From an uncultured Trueperaceae bacterium (GTDB lineage Bacteria > Deinococcota > Deinococci > Deinococcales > Trueperaceae): DNA of 64,000 nucleotides. Under the pieces are notes generated by a model. That model had not been told where the DNA came from, did not search any database, and saw only the letters and a list, made by a program, of their open reading frames with translations. Below, piece after piece: positions 1 through 7,260 of the stretch (the first letter of the stretch is position 1; each line of letters begins with the position of its first letter). The stretch spans positions 480,001-544,000 of the forward strand of contig CAVSGP010000004.1 in the NCBI GenBank assembly GCA_963727505.1, written 5' to 3'. The position numbers and the translations under genes are program-made.

Positions 1-263
1 CCAGCGCGCGGCCCCAGTCTTGCCACCTCAGCGTTTGCATGGGCGAACGGCGAGCGAACGAGGCCCAATTGCCACCAACTCGATGGAGACCTGGTGCGGC
101 GAAGAGCGATTGGCGCACCAGACGCCGAGCGCATCGGCGTGGCACGGGAGCCACCGTTCGTCGCTTCCGGACCGGCACCACCCTGCCGCCAGCGTCCGTC
201 TCTGGAACGCGAGTCTTCCGTCTGCCATGCGCCACCCGACAGCGGGAGCCGCAGCGGGCGCCT

Positions 264-926
264 TCAATGCGGCCCATACCCAATCGCGCGGCGCACCGTC
301 TCCGGGTCCGCGATCGGGTGCCGCTCCGGCCAATACAACGCGAGCGCCGTAGCCAGCACCAGGTCGTCGTGCGGGTTCTCCCGCCAGTCATTCCCGTACG
401 TGTCATGACCGCGAGCGTTGAGCTTCACCCGGAACGCCAGCATCTCGTCCCTGAGCACCTGAGCCAGCGACAAGTCGCTCTGTACGCGCAACACGCCCTT
501 CTGAAGCGCCACCTGCAGGCGTGACACCAGATCGCGCTTCGGGACGCGATGGTAGCCGTCCGTGGAGGTGGCCGCGTCCCCGCCCGTGATGGTCACAGCC
601 TTCGGCTTGAGGCCCGCCTGCCGCAACAGGTCGACCACGGGCCGGCCGACACCCGTCGCATCCACAATGAGCGTCACATCGCCGTCCCAATAGGTGCGCC
701 CGTCAAGGTGCATCGGCGCTCCCATCAGCCGCTTGATGATCTCCCCCACCCGCTCCACCTGATTGGGGTAGGACGTTCCGAGCGGCAGGCGCTCGAGATG
801 CCCGAGGCGGTACAGTCGCGGCTTGCTCACGTCAGGATGCTCGACCTTCTCCACGACGCTGATGGCCGTGTAGTCGTTGGCCTGGCCGAGGTCAACGCCC
901 ATGAAGAACTTGCGGGAACGCTTCAT
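264..926 (-). CDS. Terminase large subunit, stand-alone C-terminal RNase H-like nuclease domain
   Basis: Motifs GVDLGQANDYTA, DATGVG and HDDLVLATALA; ATG overlaps the stop of the upstream ATPase gene (ATGA) with GGAGG upstream. Confidence 0.8.
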   Translation of the reverse strand: MKRSRKFFMGVDLGQANDYTAISVVEKVEHPDVSKPRLYRLGHLERLPLGTSYPNQVERVGEIIKRLMGAPMHLDGRTYWDGDVTLIVDATGVGRPVVDLLRQAGLKPKAVTITGGDAATSTDGYHRVPKRDLVSRLQVALQKGVLRVQSDLSLAQVLRDEMLAFRVKLNARGHDTYGNDWRENPHDDLVLATALALYWPERHPIADPETVRRAIGYGPH

Positions 927-1681
927 GCCGAGGCCTCCAGGAACGGCTCGAAACCGTCGTCCATCGCGGCTTGCACGAGCTCGTAGTTGAAGACTTGATC
1001 ATCGGCGTCGCTGAAGACGCACATGTACTCCTGCTGATACCGCCAGAGCGGCATGCTGGCCTTCTCCTGCTCGAGGAACGACGCGCTGATGCGGGGAATG
1101 TCGGTTGCCGGCACCTCGGTGCGCGTCCAGCCGGTCGCCTCGCTCCACAGCTCCCAGAAGTGCCGAAGCTTGCCCCACGGCGTGCTCATCAGGACCATGC
1201 GGCCGTTGGAGACGGCGAGCATGGGCCGCATCGCGGCGTGAATATCGTCTTCCACCCAGGCGGCCTCATCCTCCACGATGAGCGTCGGAGCGGAGAAGCC
1301 GCGAATGGTGGCGTCCGAGCCCGGGAGGGCGGCCACGCGTCCGCCGTTCCTCACCGTCCAGGAGAGCTTGTTGTCCTCCGAGAGGTCGGGCTTGCGGGGG
1401 AGCAGCTCGGCGAACTCCTTGACCTTCCGGAACAGCTCGCTGCTCTGCCGCTGCGACGGGCTCACGATGAGCGTCAGACTCTTCGGGACGTAAAGACTGG
1501 TATGTAGACCTAGCACCGCGGCGAGGGTACTCTTGCCGCCCTGCCGCGTGACATTGATGAGGTCGCGCTTGCTGTCGCTCGTGAGCACCTTCCGCTGCCA
1601 CGGGTCGAGCTTGAGCCCGAGCACTTCCTCAGCGAACGCCGCGCGATCCAGCGCGTACCTGAAGTCACTCGCTAGGCTCAT
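923..1681 (-). CDS. Terminase large subunit, stand-alone N-terminal ATPase domain (Terminase_6N-like)
   Basis: LDPWQ adenine-binding motif, Walker A TRQGGKS, Walker B LIVEDEAA, coupling motif MSTP; ends after QEYMCVF. Confidence 0.88.
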   Translation of the reverse strand: MSLASDFRYALDRAAFAEEVLGLKLDPWQRKVLTSDSKRDLINVTRQGGKSTLAAVLGLHTSLYVPKSLTLIVSPSQRQSSELFRKVKEFAELLPRKPDLSEDNKLSWTVRNGGRVAALPGSDATIRGFSAPTLIVEDEAAWVEDDIHAAMRPMLAVSNGRMVLMSTPWGKLRHFWELWSEATGWTRTEVPATDIPRISASFLEQEKASMPLWRYQQEYMCVFSDADDQVFNYELVQAAMDDGFEPFLEASA

Positions 1682-2147
1682 GGTTCTCCAGCGCGTGCAT
1701 GACCGCCACGCGCGCCTCCGGGAACGGCTGAAGGGCGCCCATCAGGTCCGCCCGGAGCGCGATCCACTGGTTGCTCACCGTGATGTTGACGGTCGTGCCG
1801 GTCTGCAGCTCACCAAGCATCTTCGCGAGCAACTCGAGATTGCTCCTAGCCTCCTTGATGGCCAGCAGCGCGGTCTTATGGTCGCCGGCGCTCTTGCTCT
1901 TCGCGAGGATGCCCTCCGCCTCGCTCTGCAGGCCCCGCACCTTCGCCAACAGGTCATCGGCGTTCGTGTTCGCCGCGGTCGGCGCGCCCGCCATCTCCGC
2001 CACCATGCGGTCCTTGTGCCTGTGCACGGCGCTCTTGCTGAGCCTGAATGCCTCCGCCACCTGCCGGACGGGCATGCCCCTGGCGAGCGCCTCCTCGACC
2101 TCCCTGCGCTTCGGATGCGTCGTGATGGTCGTTTGGCTCGCGCTCAC
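1665..2147 (-). CDS. Putative terminase small subunit (N-terminal HTH plus helical oligomerisation region)
   Basis: HTH MPVRQVAEAFRLSKSAVHRH; lies directly upstream of and overlaps terL; GTG start at 2147 overlaps the previous stop. Confidence 0.65.
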   Translation of the reverse strand: MSASQTTITTHPKRREVEEALARGMPVRQVAEAFRLSKSAVHRHKDRMVAEMAGAPTAANTNADDLLAKVRGLQSEAEGILAKSKSAGDHKTALLAIKEARSNLELLAKMLGELQTGTTVNITVSNQWIALRADLMGALQPFPEARVAVMHALENHEPSE

Positions 2148-2280
2148 GCCTGCCACTCCACACGCAGCTCCTCGAGCGCGACGGGGCTCACGTCACGCCC
2201 GCCATTAACGCCCGAAACGCGGCGTACAAATGACCATCCAACAGCCACCCCGCCGCACGAAGCTTCCGACGCAGCCTCAC
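2144..2280 (-). other. Two chained micro-ORFs (2188-2280, 30 aa; 2144-2191, 15 aa) or one frameshifted small gene
   Basis: Translated by hand as VRLRRKLRAAGWLLDGHLYAAFRALMAGVT* and VSPVALEELRVEWQA*; each is joined to its neighbours by a GTGA overlap. Confidence 0.35.
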
Positions 2281-2915
2281 GCCAACTCCTCCTCCGGATC
2301 CACGTCCGGGGAAAACAGTCCGGCCGTGTTCCGAATCGCCGCCAAAGCCCTGAAGCGCCCACCGAAATCATGCGAGAGCCACACCGGCACATTGGAGTTC
2401 CCCCGCTGCAACGGCTCAACGTCCGCCCCGACAACCCCGCGCGCCAGCTGCTCATTCGCGTCGCCGCCATGCTTACCCGCCAACCGCACAGCCGCCGACG
2501 TGGCACGGTGAAACTCCCGATTAGCCCGCTCACTCAAGTGCTTCGACAACGTCACCGCGCGCCGCACCGACGCGTCAGCCGCCTCCATCACCGCGTACCA
2601 CTGCGCCTCAGCCTCCCGATAAGCAACCGACCCCGCAGCGACCTCCGCCAGCTCCCGCTCGTCCTCCGCGACTGACTCCAGCCCGGCGAGCTCCGCCTCG
2701 ACCTCCGCGATCTCCTCGCGATGCTGCGCCAGCATGGACTCGACCGCATCCCGACGGGCCCGCAGGTCCGCGACCTCGTCGATGTCCACGCCACCGGACT
2801 TCGCCTCCCGATACTCGCGGTCGCGCTTCGCAAGCAACGCTTCCAACCGCGGCTCATCCGAACGCAGCGCGTCCAGCGTCTCGCTCGTGCTCTTGAGTTC
2901 CGTCTTCGTGCTCAC
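2277..2915 (-). CDS. Hypothetical coiled-coil protein (212 aa)
   Basis: GTG start (VSTKTELK) overlapping the upstream stop, GGAGG upstream; E/A/L/R-rich heptad pattern. Confidence 0.65.
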   Translation of the reverse strand: MSTKTELKSTSETLDALRSDEPRLEALLAKRDREYREAKSGGVDIDEVADLRARRDAVESMLAQHREEIAEVEAELAGLESVAEDERELAEVAAGSVAYREAEAQWYAVMEAADASVRRAVTLSKHLSERANREFHRATSAAVRLAGKHGGDANEQLARGVVGADVEPLQRGNSNVPVWLSHDFGGRFRALAAIRNTAGLFSPDVDPEEELA

Positions 2916-3076
2916 GGCTCCACCTCCAGAAAGTTGTTGCTCTCCAGGTACGCGTTGACTTTCTCCGAGGTCTTCCCTCGAAGCGCCTGCAGCTCTTCCG
3001 CCGTCGCCCTCCTCGACTTCCACTGGTAGCCCTTGGCCTTCGGCTCGCTCCGCTCGTCCTTCTGCTGGTCGCTCAT
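2912..3076 (-). CDS. Small hypothetical protein (54 aa, MSDQQKDERSEPKAKGYQWK...)
   Basis: Not in the ORF track; GGGAGGAAG RBS before the ATG; stop overlaps the next GTG. Confidence 0.6.
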   Translation of the reverse strand: MSDQQKDERSEPKAKGYQWKSRRATAEELQALRGKTSEKVNAYLESNNFLEVEP

Positions 3077-3154
3077 GCTTCCTCCCAAAGAAAATGGCCC
3101 GATCTCTGCGACCGGGCCACCAGCGGCTTCTACAGTCCCAAGCGTACATTCGCG

Positions 3155-3577
3155 CTAACTCGCGCTAACGCCGTACTTCCGGCGCAACCGCTCGACCTCC
3201 GCCTCGGGCACCAGCCAGCCCGAACGGTTATCGCCCCGCCGGCCCTTCCGAGCGTCGATCAAGCCCTCTCGGCACTGCCACGTAAGCGTCGAGTACGGCA
3301 GGCCCGTCAACTCCTGGACCCCCTCGAGCGTGTACTCCCTCGGCGCGGCCGGCGCCCGCTGCCAGGACGGCGTGTAAGCCCGCTCACGAGGCGACACGAA
3401 GCTCGGATGGGCACTGCGTCGCGCGGGCCCCGAGGGGCGGCCGTAGAGCACCCTGACCGCCTCTGAGGGGCCATCATCCGCCGATACCATCCAGACTTCG
3501 CAGGCGTCACAGTATAGCGGCGCTCGCGTCGGGGTGGATGCCCCCTGCCCGCACTCAGGGCACACGTACCGGTTCAC
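3155..3577 (-). CDS. Zinc-ribbon plus excisionase/MerR-like HTH protein
   Basis: CPEC...CDAC at the N-terminus; C-terminal YTLEGVQELTGLPYSTLTWQCREGLI...WLVPEAEVERL; GTG overlaps the resolvase stop. Confidence 0.65.
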   Translation of the reverse strand: MNRYVCPECGQGASTPTRAPLYCDACEVWMVSADDGPSEAVRVLYGRPSGPARRSAHPSFVSPRERAYTPSWQRAPAAPREYTLEGVQELTGLPYSTLTWQCREGLIDARKGRRGDNRSGWLVPEAEVERLRRKYGVSAS

Positions 3578-3897
3578 TTCCAACCCCCAGAGCGCGCCAG
3601 GAGCTCTAAGAGGTCCGCGAGTCTCAGCACGGCGAACATCTGCGACTTCGAGCCGCGCCGTGACTCCACCAGCACGACCCCGTCCGTGCCCTCGGGTGGC
3701 GTCAGGAACTCCGCTAGCTTGGCTCTCGTCTTCACCTGCGCGCGCATGTTGCCCACGAGTACGTCGACCGTCTCGGAGTGCCCCAGCGACCGGCCATCGC
3801 TTCCGCGAGCTCTGACCGCCGGCAGGCCAGCCTCGGACGCGGCCCGAACCACCATCCGCTCGCCTCGATCGCCCTTCCTTTTCGACGGGTGAGCCAT
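3574..3897 (-). CDS. Hjc-like Holliday junction resolvase (PD-(D/E)xK)
   Basis: SKRKGDRGER N-terminal motif, VDVLV and QVKTR. Confidence 0.75.
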   Translation of the reverse strand: MAHPSKRKGDRGERMVVRAASEAGLPAVRARGSDGRSLGHSETVDVLVGNMRAQVKTRAKLAEFLTPPEGTDGVVLVESRRGSKSQMFAVLRLADLLELLARSGGWK

Positions 3898-4196
3898 CAA
3901 GCCCACCGGCCTTCGCGCACTATTCGCACACTGGCAGCACCAGGCGAGCATGACCGCAAGCGCCAACATGCGCGCCTGACGCCACTATTCGCCAGCTCTG
4001 CCTGAGGGGTTCGACAGACTAGTAGTCTGTCCGAGCCTTCGTCCCGCTGGACTGTCGACGTCCCACCTCTTGGCCCGAAGCGCGCCAGCCGACGGAAGCT
4101 AGTCCCACTCGGCGCCGCTGAGGACGCGATATTCGCGCCCTTTGGCTCTCCACCGTCCCACAAACAAGAGCCCACGCACTCTCGTCCAACGGTCAT
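3897..4196 (-). CDS. Hypothetical protein
   Basis: No recognisable motif; supported only by coupling at both ends (ATGA with the helicase stop, TGATG with the resolvase start). Confidence 0.35.
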   Translation of the reverse strand: MTVGRECVGSCLWDGGEPKGANIASSAAPSGTSFRRLARFGPRGGTSTVQRDEGSDRLLVCRTPQAELANSGVRRACWRLRSCSPGAASVRIVREGRWA

Positions 4197-5419
4197 GCGC
4201 TGTGCTCCTGAATGAGACTACGCAGGCGCGCCCTATCTTCAGTGGTGGCGCGATCCTTCGAGAAGATGGCGGTGAGTTCGTCCTGGGCGTCGGTTCCTTG
4301 GAACTCGCCAGCTATCCATTTCTTGTGGAGGTTCTTGACTTCCTCTGGAGTATCCCCATTCACAGCGTTCACAGGGGGGTTTGGTGTGAATGCCTGTGAA
4401 TGAGAGGGGTCTGTGCCGTTCACAGGGGTTTGCGCTGTCTCTGTCGCATCTTCTAGCACGCTGTGAACAAGGTGAACGATAGAGTAGTTGCCTTTGTCGT
4501 CACTGGCGAGCATGCCTTCGTTGCGCATGCGGATGAGAAGGTGGCGTGTGCTGTCGCGTTTGAGTGTTGCGGCTTCGGCGATTTCCTTTGGAGTGAGGCC
4601 TTCCGGGGCTTCCTCTAGAGCCCGGAGGATGGCTCTGCGTTCTTGCGAGAGGCTCCATTCGCGCGCAGAGCCGAGGACTTGCCAGAGCCCGGTGTGATTG
4701 TCGAATTGGAGGGCGAGCTCTCGGTCCTCGACATCTCTGCCGGTGATGTGCATGGTGGCGTCGGCGTCGCCGCGGGTTCGTTTGATGACGATCATTCCGT
4801 CTAGAGGTCCGGTGATGCCGTAGCTGCCGGATATCTCCTCGAAGGGATCGGCTCCTTGTGACTTCCGTGTGTGGTGGACGAGGAGGATGCATATGTCGAA
4901 CTCTTTTGTGAGCGCTTGGAGTTCTGAGACCATCCTGCTGTCGCCGCTATATAGGTCTTCGCTCTTGATGCGTTGGCCGCGGATTCGGACGAGCGTGTCG
5001 ATCGCGATGACTTTGGTGCTGGGGTGGTCTTGGATCCATTTGCGTAGTGCCTGTATGAGCCCGCGGTCCAGGCCAGGTGCTTCGGTGAGCATGTGGAAGG
5101 TGGTTGGCCAGCCGGTTTCGTCGGCTCCGAGGAATTGCAGCCGGGTTCGGAGTCGCTGGCGTGTGTCCTCGAGCGCTAGGTACAGGACGCCTGCAGGCTC
5201 TACTGGGATCTTCCCGAAGGCGAGTCCGCCTGCGGCGACGCTGAGGAGGAGGGCGAGGACCCACCAGCTCTTGCCTGTCTTTGGTGGGGCGGCGAGAAGC
5301 CAGAGGCCGTAGGCGATGACGTCGGGCACGACCCATTGCTGGGGTGGTATCTCCATGTCGCGGAGGTCGTTGGCGGTGAACGTATGGAGGGTCGGCGGGA
5401 GGGAGCGGGGGCTTGGCAT
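4193..5419 (-). CDS. AAA_25 / RSF1010 RepA-type replicative helicase with C-terminal winged HTH
   Basis: Walker A AAPPKTGKSW, VLYLALED, Walker B VIAIDTL, LLVHHTRK; HTH LTPKEIAEAATLKRDSTRHLLIRM. Confidence 0.85.
   Translation of the reverse strand: MPSPRSLPPTLHTFTANDLRDMEIPPQQWVVPDVIAYGLWLLAAPPKTGKSWWVLALLLSVAAGGLAFGKIPVEPAGVLYLALEDTRQRLRTRLQFLGADETGWPTTFHMLTEAPGLDRGLIQALRKWIQDHPSTKVIAIDTLVRIRGQRIKSEDLYSGDSRMVSELQALTKEFDICILLVHHTRKSQGADPFEEISGSYGITGPLDGMIVIKRTRGDADATMHITGRDVEDRELALQFDNHTGLWQVLGSAREWSLSQERRAILRALEEAPEGLTPKEIAEAATLKRDSTRHLLIRMRNEGMLASDDKGNYSIVHLVHSVLEDATETAQTPVNGTDPSHSQAFTPNPPVNAVNGDTPEEVKNLHKKWIAGEFQGTDAQDELTAIFSKDRATTEDRARLRSLIQEHSA
4358..4477. repeat. Cluster of seven TTCAC(AG)/(CT)GTGAA repeats in both orientations; putative iteron origin
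   Basis: TTCACAG at 4359, 4368 and 4419; GTGAA cores at 4386, 4396, 4463 and 4472. Confidence 0.6.
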
Positions 5420-5772
5420 CAGATGTCCTCGCGGTCGGCCCAGCGGAGCATTCGTATTCGTGCCTCGAGGCCTCCGGAGAGCGCGTCCTCGATCAGCTCC
5501 CGCGCCCTGGTCTTGGCGAAGTGGCTGAGCTGAAGCCTGCCGGACTCCAAGGTCTTCTGCAGCCGCTCAATCTTTGCCCGGTCGTCGTCGTTGAGGGCGT
5601 GCGCCTTGGCGTAGGCGATGCCGAACAATGCCCAGCCCAGCCCAATCTGTTCGTGCTCGTTGAAGCTGTCACGGTTGGCGGCGTCGCGGAGGTACTCCAG
5701 ATCGACTTGTCGTGCTAGAGTCTTCCCGTACCCGTCGGTGCCGCGCCCCGCCTGCCAGCGGGGCTCTTTCAT
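5419..5772 (-). CDS. Hypothetical helical protein upstream of the helicase
   Basis: 117 aa ORF coupled to xis (ATGA) and to the helicase (TGATG). Confidence 0.6.
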   Translation of the reverse strand: MKEPRWQAGRGTDGYGKTLARQVDLEYLRDAANRDSFNEHEQIGLGWALFGIAYAKAHALNDDDRAKIERLQKTLESGRLQLSHFAKTRARELIEDALSGGLEARIRMLRWADREDI

Positions 5773-6044
5773 GCCGGACCCTCTGCTGGCTCTTCCCTCC
5801 AGCCTCCAGGCAGTGCTTGGCCGCCGGATTCAATGAAGGCTCTCACGTCCTCTGGGCGGAATCTGACGTTGCGGCCGATCTTGACGCAGGGCAACAGGCG
5901 ACGGCGTGCATAGTCGTAGACGCTGCTGGGCGGGAGGTCGAGGATTTCGGCGACGTCTCTGCCGGAAAGCAAGTGCATGATGCCTGCGGTGCGGTGCCGT
6001 TCCTGTTGCGCATGCGTGTCGCGTCCCTCAGATACATTGGTCAT
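5769..6044 (-). CDS. Excisionase/AlpA-like HTH_17 DNA-binding protein
   Basis: LLSGRDVAEILDLPPSSVYDYARRRLLPCVKIGRNVRFRPEDV; AAGGAGG RBS. Confidence 0.85.
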   Translation of the reverse strand: MTNVSEGRDTHAQQERHRTAGIMHLLSGRDVAEILDLPPSSVYDYARRRLLPCVKIGRNVRFRPEDVRAFIESGGQALPGGWREEPAEGPA

Positions 6045-6151
6045 GCAAACCCTCCTTGGGTTTGTGCTTGGGTGGAGGCGCTGTCACTCTTGGCGGAGAA
6101 GGCGCCTCCATCTGCTATTGGTTTCGGGCTGTTCGTGTCTGGCCGCAGCAA
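6041..6151 (-). CDS. Putative 36-aa leader ORF of the element operon
   Basis: TAAGGAGGA then TTG at 6151; MLRPDTNSPKPIADGGAFSAKSDSASTQAQTQGGFA*; stop overlaps the xis ATG. Confidence 0.4.
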   Translation of the reverse strand: MLRPDTNSPKPIADGGAFSAKSDSASTQAQTQGGFA

Positions 6152-6162
6152 GCCGTCCTCCT

Positions 6163-6201
6163 TATGGTCTCACCATAGGGAGAAGAGCGGCCCGGTGTCA
6201 A
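6163..6201 (-). promoter_or_regulatory. Sigma70-type promoter of the element operon with an overlapping palindromic operator candidate
   Basis: TTGACA (6201-6196), 18 nt spacer, TATGGT (6177-6172); inverted repeat TATGGT-ctc-ACCATA at 6163-6177. Confidence 0.55.
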
Positions 6202-6259
6202 TCGCAATAAGGGCGTCAGGGACGTGAAAAAGGGGTGTTTCTGCACCACCCGAAGAGGT

Positions 6260-7018
6260 TCATACCTTTTTTGATGGCCGGCCAGAGTCGCGCTTTGCCC
6301 GAGGAATGTCCAGCAACGTGGATGCGGCGTTCAAGGCTTGATTCACCGTTGCCTTGGACTTGTGCATCAGCACCTGCAACTCGCGGACGTCCACGCCACA
6401 GGTCTGGTACAGGACAAACCATTCGATATTGCGGCCGGTCGTGGAGGTCGTCAACGGCAGAGCGAGCCCTTCCTCCGCCAGGAAGGCCTCAAACCGGTCC
6501 ATGTATGCAGTCACTTGGCGTTCAAGTTCCTTCAAGGCTTGAGCCCTGAAGTTGTCGCGACCCTCGTTCCAAGCGAGCCGGTTCCATCCGACGATCGGCT
6601 CCGGCTTGAAGTCATACAGATCGTCTCTCGTGCGGTGGACGGCTATCCTTGGCAGTTCGCCCCAAGATTTGCCGGCAATGGCCGGTTCCTCGATCCAGAG
6701 GCACAGACTATCTAGGGCCTGGTCGCGGACCCAGCGGGCGTCGATGTTGTGCGCTTCGAGCGCGCGCGCGAGCGCAGCGGCAAACGCTAGAAAGCCTGCT
6801 TGGCCTTCCAATATGACTGCTACGTTCTCGTAGATAAGCCCTGGCCTTGAGAACTCCGCCCGCGTTAGGCCCGAAGCGCCTTCAAGAAAGCGCCTCAACT
6901 CTTTGAGCGGATCTCCAGCAAGGTCTCTCAGTACGTGAGGCGCGTGGCGCTCGACCCTTTCAAGAAACGTCGCCCGCGCGAATACCAGCTCGGCCTCGCT
7001 AACCGGTTCAGAGCTCAT
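6260..7018 (-). CDS. Hypothetical protein with C-terminal HTH-like segment and basic GRP tail; putative element regulator
   Basis: IEWFVLYQTCGVDVRELQVLMHKSKATVNQAL...RDSGRPSKKV; lower GC; last gene before the att site. Confidence 0.6.
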   Translation of the reverse strand: MSSEPVSEAELVFARATFLERVERHAPHVLRDLAGDPLKELRRFLEGASGLTRAEFSRPGLIYENVAVILEGQAGFLAFAAALARALEAHNIDARWVRDQALDSLCLWIEEPAIAGKSWGELPRIAVHRTRDDLYDFKPEPIVGWNRLAWNEGRDNFRAQALKELERQVTAYMDRFEAFLAEEGLALPLTTSTTGRNIEWFVLYQTCGVDVRELQVLMHKSKATVNQALNAASTLLDIPRAKRDSGRPSKKV

Positions 7019-7157
7019 GATCTTGTGTGCGAGTAGTGTGCCAACTCGGCGCCCTCTGCCATACTGACGCGAGCATAGCATACGGCCAGCCCTTTTCCCT
7101 TACGTCTCGGGCGCACTTCTCGGCCTATTCGTCCTCACCGGCCATACCTTTTAGCGT

Positions 7158-7212
7158 TTCAGGGTCATGTGACCGCAAGGTCGTGGGGGTTCAAGTCCCC
7201 CCTTCGGCACCA
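7158..7212 (+). other. att site: 3' half of tRNA-Leu(CAG) from the anticodon loop to CCA
   Basis: TTCAGGGTCATG-TGACCGCAAGGTCGT (long variable arm)-GGGGGTTCAAGTCCCCC (T arm)-CTTCGGCACCA; no acceptor 5' strand or D arm upstream. Confidence 0.88.
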
Positions 7213-7216
7213 ATCG

Positions 7217-7260
7217 AATCAAGGGAAGGGCCCCGCGACGGCGGGGCCCTTCCCTTGATT
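7217..7260. terminator. Perfect 20-bp hairpin, probable bidirectional terminator between the tRNA locus and glyS
   Basis: AATCAAGGGAAGGGCCCCGC-gacg-GCGGGGCCCTTCCCTTGATT. Confidence 0.8.

Follow-up and report, generated by a model that had tools for sequence, protein, structure and literature searches.

A large terminase encoded by separate ATPase and nuclease genes in a probable phage satellite of Trueperaceae and in related phage loci

Tailed phages require a terminase, and satellites differ in how they obtain one. PICIs and SaPIs are att-flanked elements of about 10–15 kb with an integrase, a repressor, an excisionase, a primase/helicase, and TerS, and with no capsid genes. Classical PICIs borrow the large terminase (TerL) of their helper, and capsid-forming PICIs (cf-PICIs) encode their own TerS and TerL. 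According to the available part of PMC12822802, cf-PICIs also encode capsid proteins, and the EPIPs of Mycolicibacterium are 11-kb satellites with TerS, a tape-measure protein, and a serine integrase. NitKor-E1 of Ca. Nitrosopumilus koreensis has a tyrosine integrase and, as its sole tailed-virus genes, TerS and TerL; the accessible text of PMC6563490 presents it as one enigmatic, likely relic element. In the available sections of PMC13595956, TerL itself is presented as a single polypeptide that includes a linker, and the separate-domain terminase structures are listed as parts in Table 1. The same sections report that the isolated SPP1 and P22 nucleases are inactive and that the free Sf6 nuclease can exceed the tethered one in activity (PMC13595956). 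In T4, ATP does not stimulate the nuclease domain in isolation, and the authors conclude that the linkage is important to both catalysis and regulation (PMC3074133, available part). What confines activation of the nuclease to the beginning and the end of packaging is called a long-standing question, and current models in the available text of both sources signal via the covalent linker (PMC13595956, PMC3074133).

The window analyzed here is the whole 64,000-nt stretch of contig CAVSGP010000004.1 (positions 480,001 to 544,000) from an uncultured Trueperaceae bacterium. The two TerL domains are encoded there by adjacent minus-strand genes, with one copy of each half in the host genome (Table 1). 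The ATGA at 923–926 is common to the ATPase stop and the nuclease start, and the nuclease ATG is preceded by GGAGG at 7-nt spacing; the two ORFs, the overlap, and the ribosome-binding site all lie where the initial annotation had placed them. Read support at the junction, which that annotation had proposed to check, comes from assembled contigs and not raw reads: one from run X1 (732–994), possibly the source sample itself, and one from run X5 of a separate study (815–1067) each span the junction with 0 differences and 0 gaps, and neither has an indel that would fuse the ORFs. These unchanged contigs from two studies rule out an assembly error at the ATPase/nuclease junction.

Table 1. Features of the integrated element and its terminase genes (window positions)
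Feature	Position	Strand	Remarks
Right part of ~12.8-kb integrated element	1..7213	.	62.6% GC vs about 70% for host
TerL nuclease subunit, 220 aa, RNase H-like	264..926	-	closest solved fold, G20c/P74-26 TerL nuclease
TerL ATPase subunit, 252 aa	923..1681	-	ends where the interdomain linker of one-chain relatives begins
Junction: GGAGG, 7 nt, ATGA stop/start overlap	923..938	-	seen in the sequence; contigs of two studies cross it without change
ATPase C-terminal tail codons (GFEPFL)	938..955	-	local form of the family's V/I-x-P-L-F tail; candidate docking peptide
TerS-like gene, 160 aa: HTH, helical hairpin, C-terminal helical domain	1665..2147	-	
212-aa coiled-coil protein	2277..2915	-	conserved upstream of TerS in closest elements
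54-aa ORF, without family match	2912..3076	-	
HTH protein, 142 aa	3155..3583	-	weak HTH_17 match
Holliday-junction-resolvase-like protein, 131 aa	3574..3969	-	phrog_244 E 1e-6; Hjc E 4e-4
AAA_25 (RepA-like) helicase, C-terminal HTH, 408 aa	4193..5419	-	
117-aa ORF, without family match	5419..5772	-	
Excisionase-like HTH protein, 91 aa	5769..6044	-	
273-aa ORF, without family match	6260..7081	-	
att repeat, 56 bp, right end of element	7158..7213	+	identical copy 12,749 bp to the left, C4:474409-474464, outside window

The ATPase matches Pfam Terminase_6N (E 3e-11), and its best profile is PHROG 7579, a 239-column ATPase-only TerL profile (E 3e-54). A profile of the ATPase matches T4 gp17 and P74-26 (E 2e-15 to 5e-15). 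Q29, the Walker A motif RQGGKST (46–52), R127, the Walker B motif DE (138–139), and STP (166–168) are invariant or nearly so among 93 homologues. The protein has the N-terminal ASCE ATPase of a TerL, with Walker A, Walker B, and an arginine finger. The nuclease matches Pfam Terminase_6C weakly (E 4e-5) and the unannotated PHROG 27743 strongly (E 2e-34), and PHROGs already has one profile for each TerL half. D12, D18, D89, E161, and H186-D187-D188 are invariant or nearly so among the 93 nuclease homologues, and the protein has the RNase H-like fold with acidic metal-binding residues that characterizes the second domain of TerL. The best Foldseek matches of its AlphaFold model (pLDDT 90.5) are the TerL nucleases of G20c (E 1e-9) and P74-26 (E 2e-6), and its profile matches the G20c/P74-26 terminase structures at E 5e-16. 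The claim that both halves keep their catalytic motifs is thus borne out across the family. In profile and fold, the two subunits resemble the terminases of G20c/P74-26 (PDB 5m1f, 5tge, 4zni) and T4 gp17. The separate-domain structures of these terminases are laboratory constructs of one-chain proteins, whereas the division in the window is genetic. The split TerL is a variant of a known enzyme, of the P74-26/G20c type except that its two domains lie in two ORFs and not in one linker-joined chain.

A protein search with a length window of 138–441 aa, which cannot show one-chain forms, gave 1,416 relatives; the best 119 after the query are 232–284 aa long and 57–86% identical. The search for longer proteins gave 52 relatives, the best 57% identical and the others 54% or less. 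When viral contigs were scanned for the nuclease, a single-protein query gave no match and an alignment query did. Counting homologues split at the same boundary had been proposed in the initial annotation, and 170 related loci with DNA were available for this, excluding the window's own two copies and one duplicate. At 140 of them TerL is split at the same linker, 17 are long, 8 have no downstream nuclease match (6 of these sit close to the end of their contig), and 5 are truncated. Close homologues are thus not all full-length, with the proviso that the loci came from split-form queries and include near-copies, so that 140/170 applies to the nearest relatives alone. In a set of 364 genomes from the phylum, strong split-type nuclease matches occur solely in the host's family (8/127, plus this genome), and nuclease matches in other families lie in long open frames.

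The junctions vary among the split loci. The second gene uses all three frame offsets (80, 44, and 16 loci), gaps reach 1,471 nt, and the commonest arrangement is the 4-nt overlap (37/140). A Shine–Dalgarno-like word precedes 101 of the 129 scored nuclease starts, vs 269 of 1461 internal control codons. Three offsets and varied gaps exclude one conserved frameshift or readthrough, and a programmed frameshift is ruled out by these together with the window itself, where the final 78 nt of the ATPase gene contain no slippery heptamer. One protein could still be made from the two genes by frameshifting, readthrough, intron removal, or trans-splicing, as might be expected from the description of TerL as one linker-joined chain in the available part of PMC13595956, from an endonuclease gene between the halves at L075, and from intein-like inserts in two ATPase-only proteins. 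With all three frames in use, variable gaps, a ribosome-binding site belonging to the second gene, and no slippery site or spacer able to hold an intron in the window, we consider this very improbable. The L075 gene (L075:11114-12271) encodes a 385-aa HNH/endonuclease VII protein, and the inserts, read from sequence only, lie near the C-terminus of P0126 and P0128, the latter of which ends in a split-type tail. The 4-nt overlap, as the commonest junction, points to coupled, roughly equal synthesis of the subunits instead of the separate control of cutting and translocation that had been suggested for the window.

By their dN/dS ratios, both TerL halves are under purifying selection. The median is 0.15 for the ATPase (maximum 0.36; 49 close pairs) and 0.15 for the nuclease (maximum 0.71; 44 close pairs), the pairs in both sets not being independent. 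The dN/dS check that had been proposed therefore gave no sign of relaxed selection across the close pairs of the family. Comparisons involving the window's own genes are distant and near-saturated, with dN < dS in 13/13. The divergence of the two halves is correlated (Mantel r 0.49; best of 999 permutations 0.18), and the nearest neighbour is common to both halves in 30/93 cases.

Portal-like or other head genes, called from cluster representatives and single ORFs, occur at 40 of 140 split loci, with weak portal matches at L013, L020, and L068 (representative E 2e-6; no match for the copy in L068 itself). The split ATPase is the sole TerL ATPase found in 10/10 head-gene records searched whole, most of which are fragments and one of which (L071) has a frame break near the end of its copy. 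The record G369 (L051), at 53,950 bp with terminal repeats and 100% completeness by CheckV, has a portal (E 3e-70), a protease, and a capsid gene (E 4e-46) behind the split pair. Because tailed phages need a terminase and the split ATPase is the only TerL ATPase in these records, the split pair very probably packages DNA. The reading of a selected two-gene TerL over decay therefore stands, given the proportion of split loci, the Shine–Dalgarno-like sites, the dN/dS of about 0.15, and the lone split TerL in head-gene phages; we regard a real, selected split as close to certain and its operation as a two-chain terminase as highly likely. Broken copies were seen at L212:8558-10624, L215:7976-8530, and L166:5470-6107 (a 398-aa ORF interrupts the ATPase; the nuclease is in two parts).

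No cultured phage with a split TerL was found, and the closest three isolates, Riverbug (PQ109080) of Thermus and MMP7 and MMP17 (MK071653, MH939157) of Meiothermus, are all one-chain. Their ATPase is 42–46% and their nuclease about 30% identical to those of the window, and they share with it the same upstream TerS-like gene, the same nuclease lineage, and hosts in the same phylum. Their TerL is one 415–417 aa chain followed by portal and head genes, whereas the window has two genes and no portal. Homologues of the TerS-like protein lie directly upstream of the one-chain TerL in Riverbug (E 7e-56) and MMP17. In Riverbug, the annotated TerS is downstream of TerL, and the unannotated upstream gene is the TerS-like homologue (L184:3517-3999 and 5355-5759). 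The TerS-like protein of the window matches phrog_426 weakly (E 0.003), and its position, HTH, and hairpin fit TerS; it matched no solved TerS, and fold searches with its model gave only generic helical hairpins. Threonines replace the family's near-invariant N-terminal CxxC in this copy. The coiled-coil protein encoded upstream has an Atlas score of 0.90 to the P4 Psu cluster, with low recognition, and no Psu or Sid match was obtained for it with Pfam or PDB profiles.

The end of the ATPase may explain how the subunits meet. By a strict pattern, a P-L/F-aromatic tail is present in 75 of the 140 split ATPases, doubled in 14, and in 2 of 67 long proteins; the pattern was drawn after the split sequences had been viewed, 65/140 are negative for it, and the PFL of the window is a variant. 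The tail may also be shaped in part by the overlapping ribosome-binding site. Nearly confined to split ATPases, it looks as a docking peptide would, and the conserved PLF-type tail is a candidate docking peptide for the nuclease. The idea that both halves end in one and the same peptide does not apply to the window. We infer that the two TerL proteins bind each other non-covalently. Inter-protein covariation among 93 paired sequences gives no clear signal of binding: its top z is 8.2, vs 6.7–7.2 in three permutations that ignore relatedness, and the top pairs involve the ATPase C-terminal region. A 16-nt direct repeat (94%) at window positions 933–948 and 1714–1729, which may be due to chance, encodes EPFLEA near the ATPase end and QPFPEA near the end of the TerS-like protein.

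In a tree rooted on two distant proteins, Riverbug and MMP17 branch first with modest support (84–88). Long forms are scattered among the split ones, with 9 changes of which 3 are forced by well-supported branches, and a 178-row tree gives 11 changes between split and long, 5 of them forced. Three nested long forms (P0122, P0125, and P0158), Riverbug, and MMP17 have C-terminal domains that cluster with the split nuclease; most other nested long forms have different C-terminal lineages, in clusters of 33, 10, 8, and 2. A single clade of split and same-nuclease forms is rejected (p-AU 0.0015; 41 rows, LG+G4), this group having been defined after earlier trees had been seen. The trees would most simply be read as one ancient fission at the linker, after which the halves were repeatedly re-fused or domains were exchanged; more than one independent fission is also possible. 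L065 (L065:5100-6607) shows a separate split, with an ATGA overlap, a nuclease from a different lineage, and a portal-like gene behind the pair. At L118, L125, L129, L137, and L148, the nuclease dN is 0.03–0.05 vs 0.07–0.18 for the ATPase, the reverse of the usual order, and module exchange possibly accounts for this. A second, diverged free-nuclease copy lies beside the intact one in 6/140 loci (L022:7658-8305, L134:10758-11462, L159:646-1338, L167:1092-1829, L132:2189-3100, and L139:658-1335). In these copies one or both of two residues are missing, the HDD His and the first catalytic Asp, and the copies may reflect a division of labour.

The split pair of the window belongs to a 12.75-kb element, a context that the initial annotation had missed, bounded by a 56-bp perfect repeat of the 3' part of tRNA-Leu(CAG). 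Left of the window, the element carries an intact tyrosine integrase, an HTH repressor, and six cargo ORFs whose products look membrane-bound or secreted. Portal, capsid, and tail genes were found neither in the element nor elsewhere in the 97%-complete host assembly, and a search of the same assembly for a helper phage gave 0 matches with 88 structural queries and none with Pfam portal or capsid profiles. Within the limits of profile sensitivity, PHROGs and NCBIfam gave no convincing match to virion or lysis genes in the element. A helicase is present and no primase was matched among the element ORFs; repeat and promoter scans yielded no packaging-site candidate. L141, L024, L162, and L209 are bounded 10–15 kb elements that carry the split pair but gave no match to a portal or capsid, and the same compact layout occurs at different tRNA genes with unrelated replication genes. 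L085, circular and 15.0 kb long, has the split pair together with one ORF that resembles a head protease and another that matches a terminase PHROG. Where 3 kb or more of sequence follows the nuclease, head genes are present in 36 of 51 loci from viral collections, which select for them, and in 0 of 15 from metagenomes and genomes, 6 of which have an integrase there.

The element resembles PICIs and SaPIs in being att-flanked and 10–15 kb long, with an integrase, a repressor, an excisionase-like gene, and no virion-gene match. Unlike classical PICIs, it encodes both TerL halves itself, with no capsid-morphogenesis gene identified, and it differs from cf-PICIs in that no portal or capsid match was found, where those have portal, protease, and major capsid genes. 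NitKor-E1 is the nearest published case found, being likewise integrated with a tyrosine integrase and with TerS and TerL as its only tailed-virus genes, as far as the available text describes it; that text mentions no split of its TerL (PMC6563490). Several split-TerL elements have tape-measure-like genes, as EPIPs do, and no TerL is among the EPIP genes listed in the available part of PMC12822802. Such genes lie beside the split terminase, with no portal or capsid match, at L002:3166-8511, L022:3384-5801, L042:5143-7242, L074:7695-10637, and L149:3961-4794. No description of a natural linker split, a two-gene TerL, or this element class was found in the open literature without supplements, where a mention in an annotation table may be missed.

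The element is probably a satellite, and we give a probability of about 0.65 to the reading that the pair is used there for satellite packaging. The element would excise and replicate while a helper phage is active, and its TerS-like protein would bind the element's own packaging site and recruit the ATPase ring. The free nuclease would dock on the ATPase with no covalent link, most likely via the PLF-type tail that replaces the linker. The complex would then cut the concatemer, dock on the helper's portal, and fill helper procapsids with element DNA; translational coupling would yield about equal amounts of the subunits. Points against satellite packaging are the lack of a helper in the assembly, the atypical TerS copy, and the importance of linkage in T4, SPP1, and P22; the broken copies (L166, L212, L215) and the lack of a cultured split phage count against this model and the two-chain terminase alike.

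The element might instead be a prophage that has lost its head and tail genes, with a split pair that came from a phage and no longer has a function, as has been suggested for NitKor-E1. Complete phages do have the same split pair, an element with only TerS and TerL is read as a likely relic in the available text of PMC6563490, and the dN/dS for the window's lineage comes from distant, near-saturated comparisons. A relic is nevertheless unlikely, because the att repeat is perfect, the integrase is intact, and no portal or capsid remnant was found; the compact layout is found again at other tRNA genes, alongside replication genes that are unrelated, and none of the 15 metagenome and genome loci has head genes. 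Portal-less close pairs, such as L023/L024 and L103/L110/L113, moreover have dN/dS of 0.08–0.20.

The gene order of TerS-like protein, ATPase, and nuclease is the packaging order and is identical in full phages. It bears on the idea that the subunits serve interference, poisoning or competing with the packaging motor of an incoming phage or cutting its DNA, and that the element is moved by other means. The lack of a portal or capsid in both element and host assembly, the degenerate extra nuclease copies at 6/140 loci, and the free Sf6 nuclease, which can be more active than the tethered one (PMC13595956, available sections), would agree with such a role. All catalytic residues are kept in both halves, however, and PADLOC gave no match for either half and no defence-system match of note; together with the packaging order, this makes interference rather improbable.

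A divergent portal or capsid gene among the unannotated ORFs could have been missed by the profiles, since several ORFs of the window's element have no match and the circular relative L085 has a head-protease-like ORF. The unmatched ORFs are, however, 54–273 aa long vs 449–621 aa for the portals of related loci, and the left-side cargo appears membrane-bound or secreted, so hidden particle genes are quite improbable.

Beyond satellite packaging in the window, we tentatively propose, at somewhat less than even odds, a widespread and undescribed lineage of phages and capsid-less satellites in which an untethered nuclease docks on a short ATPase tail of the packaging motor. The nuclease would now be an exchangeable module, duplicated into degenerate copies, and the ATPase would have been re-fused several times with unrelated nucleases; the satellites would form a class that brings its whole own terminase to the helper's portal. 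Such a strategy would be intermediate between PICIs and capsid-forming PICIs. A natural linker-free motor would test linker signalling directly, as its subunits can be titrated, swapped, or omitted, and would open to study whether translocation can proceed without a nuclease domain. TerL trees restricted to proteins with both domains would miss the split lineage, whose nuclease half falls in an unannotated PHROG.

Two repeat structures were seen in or beside these elements. A GTTAAC-rich repeat array in a related element (L102:14477-14891) is possibly a replication origin. In the window, a perfect 20-bp inverted repeat with a terminator-like appearance lies at 7217–7260, just outside the right att site.
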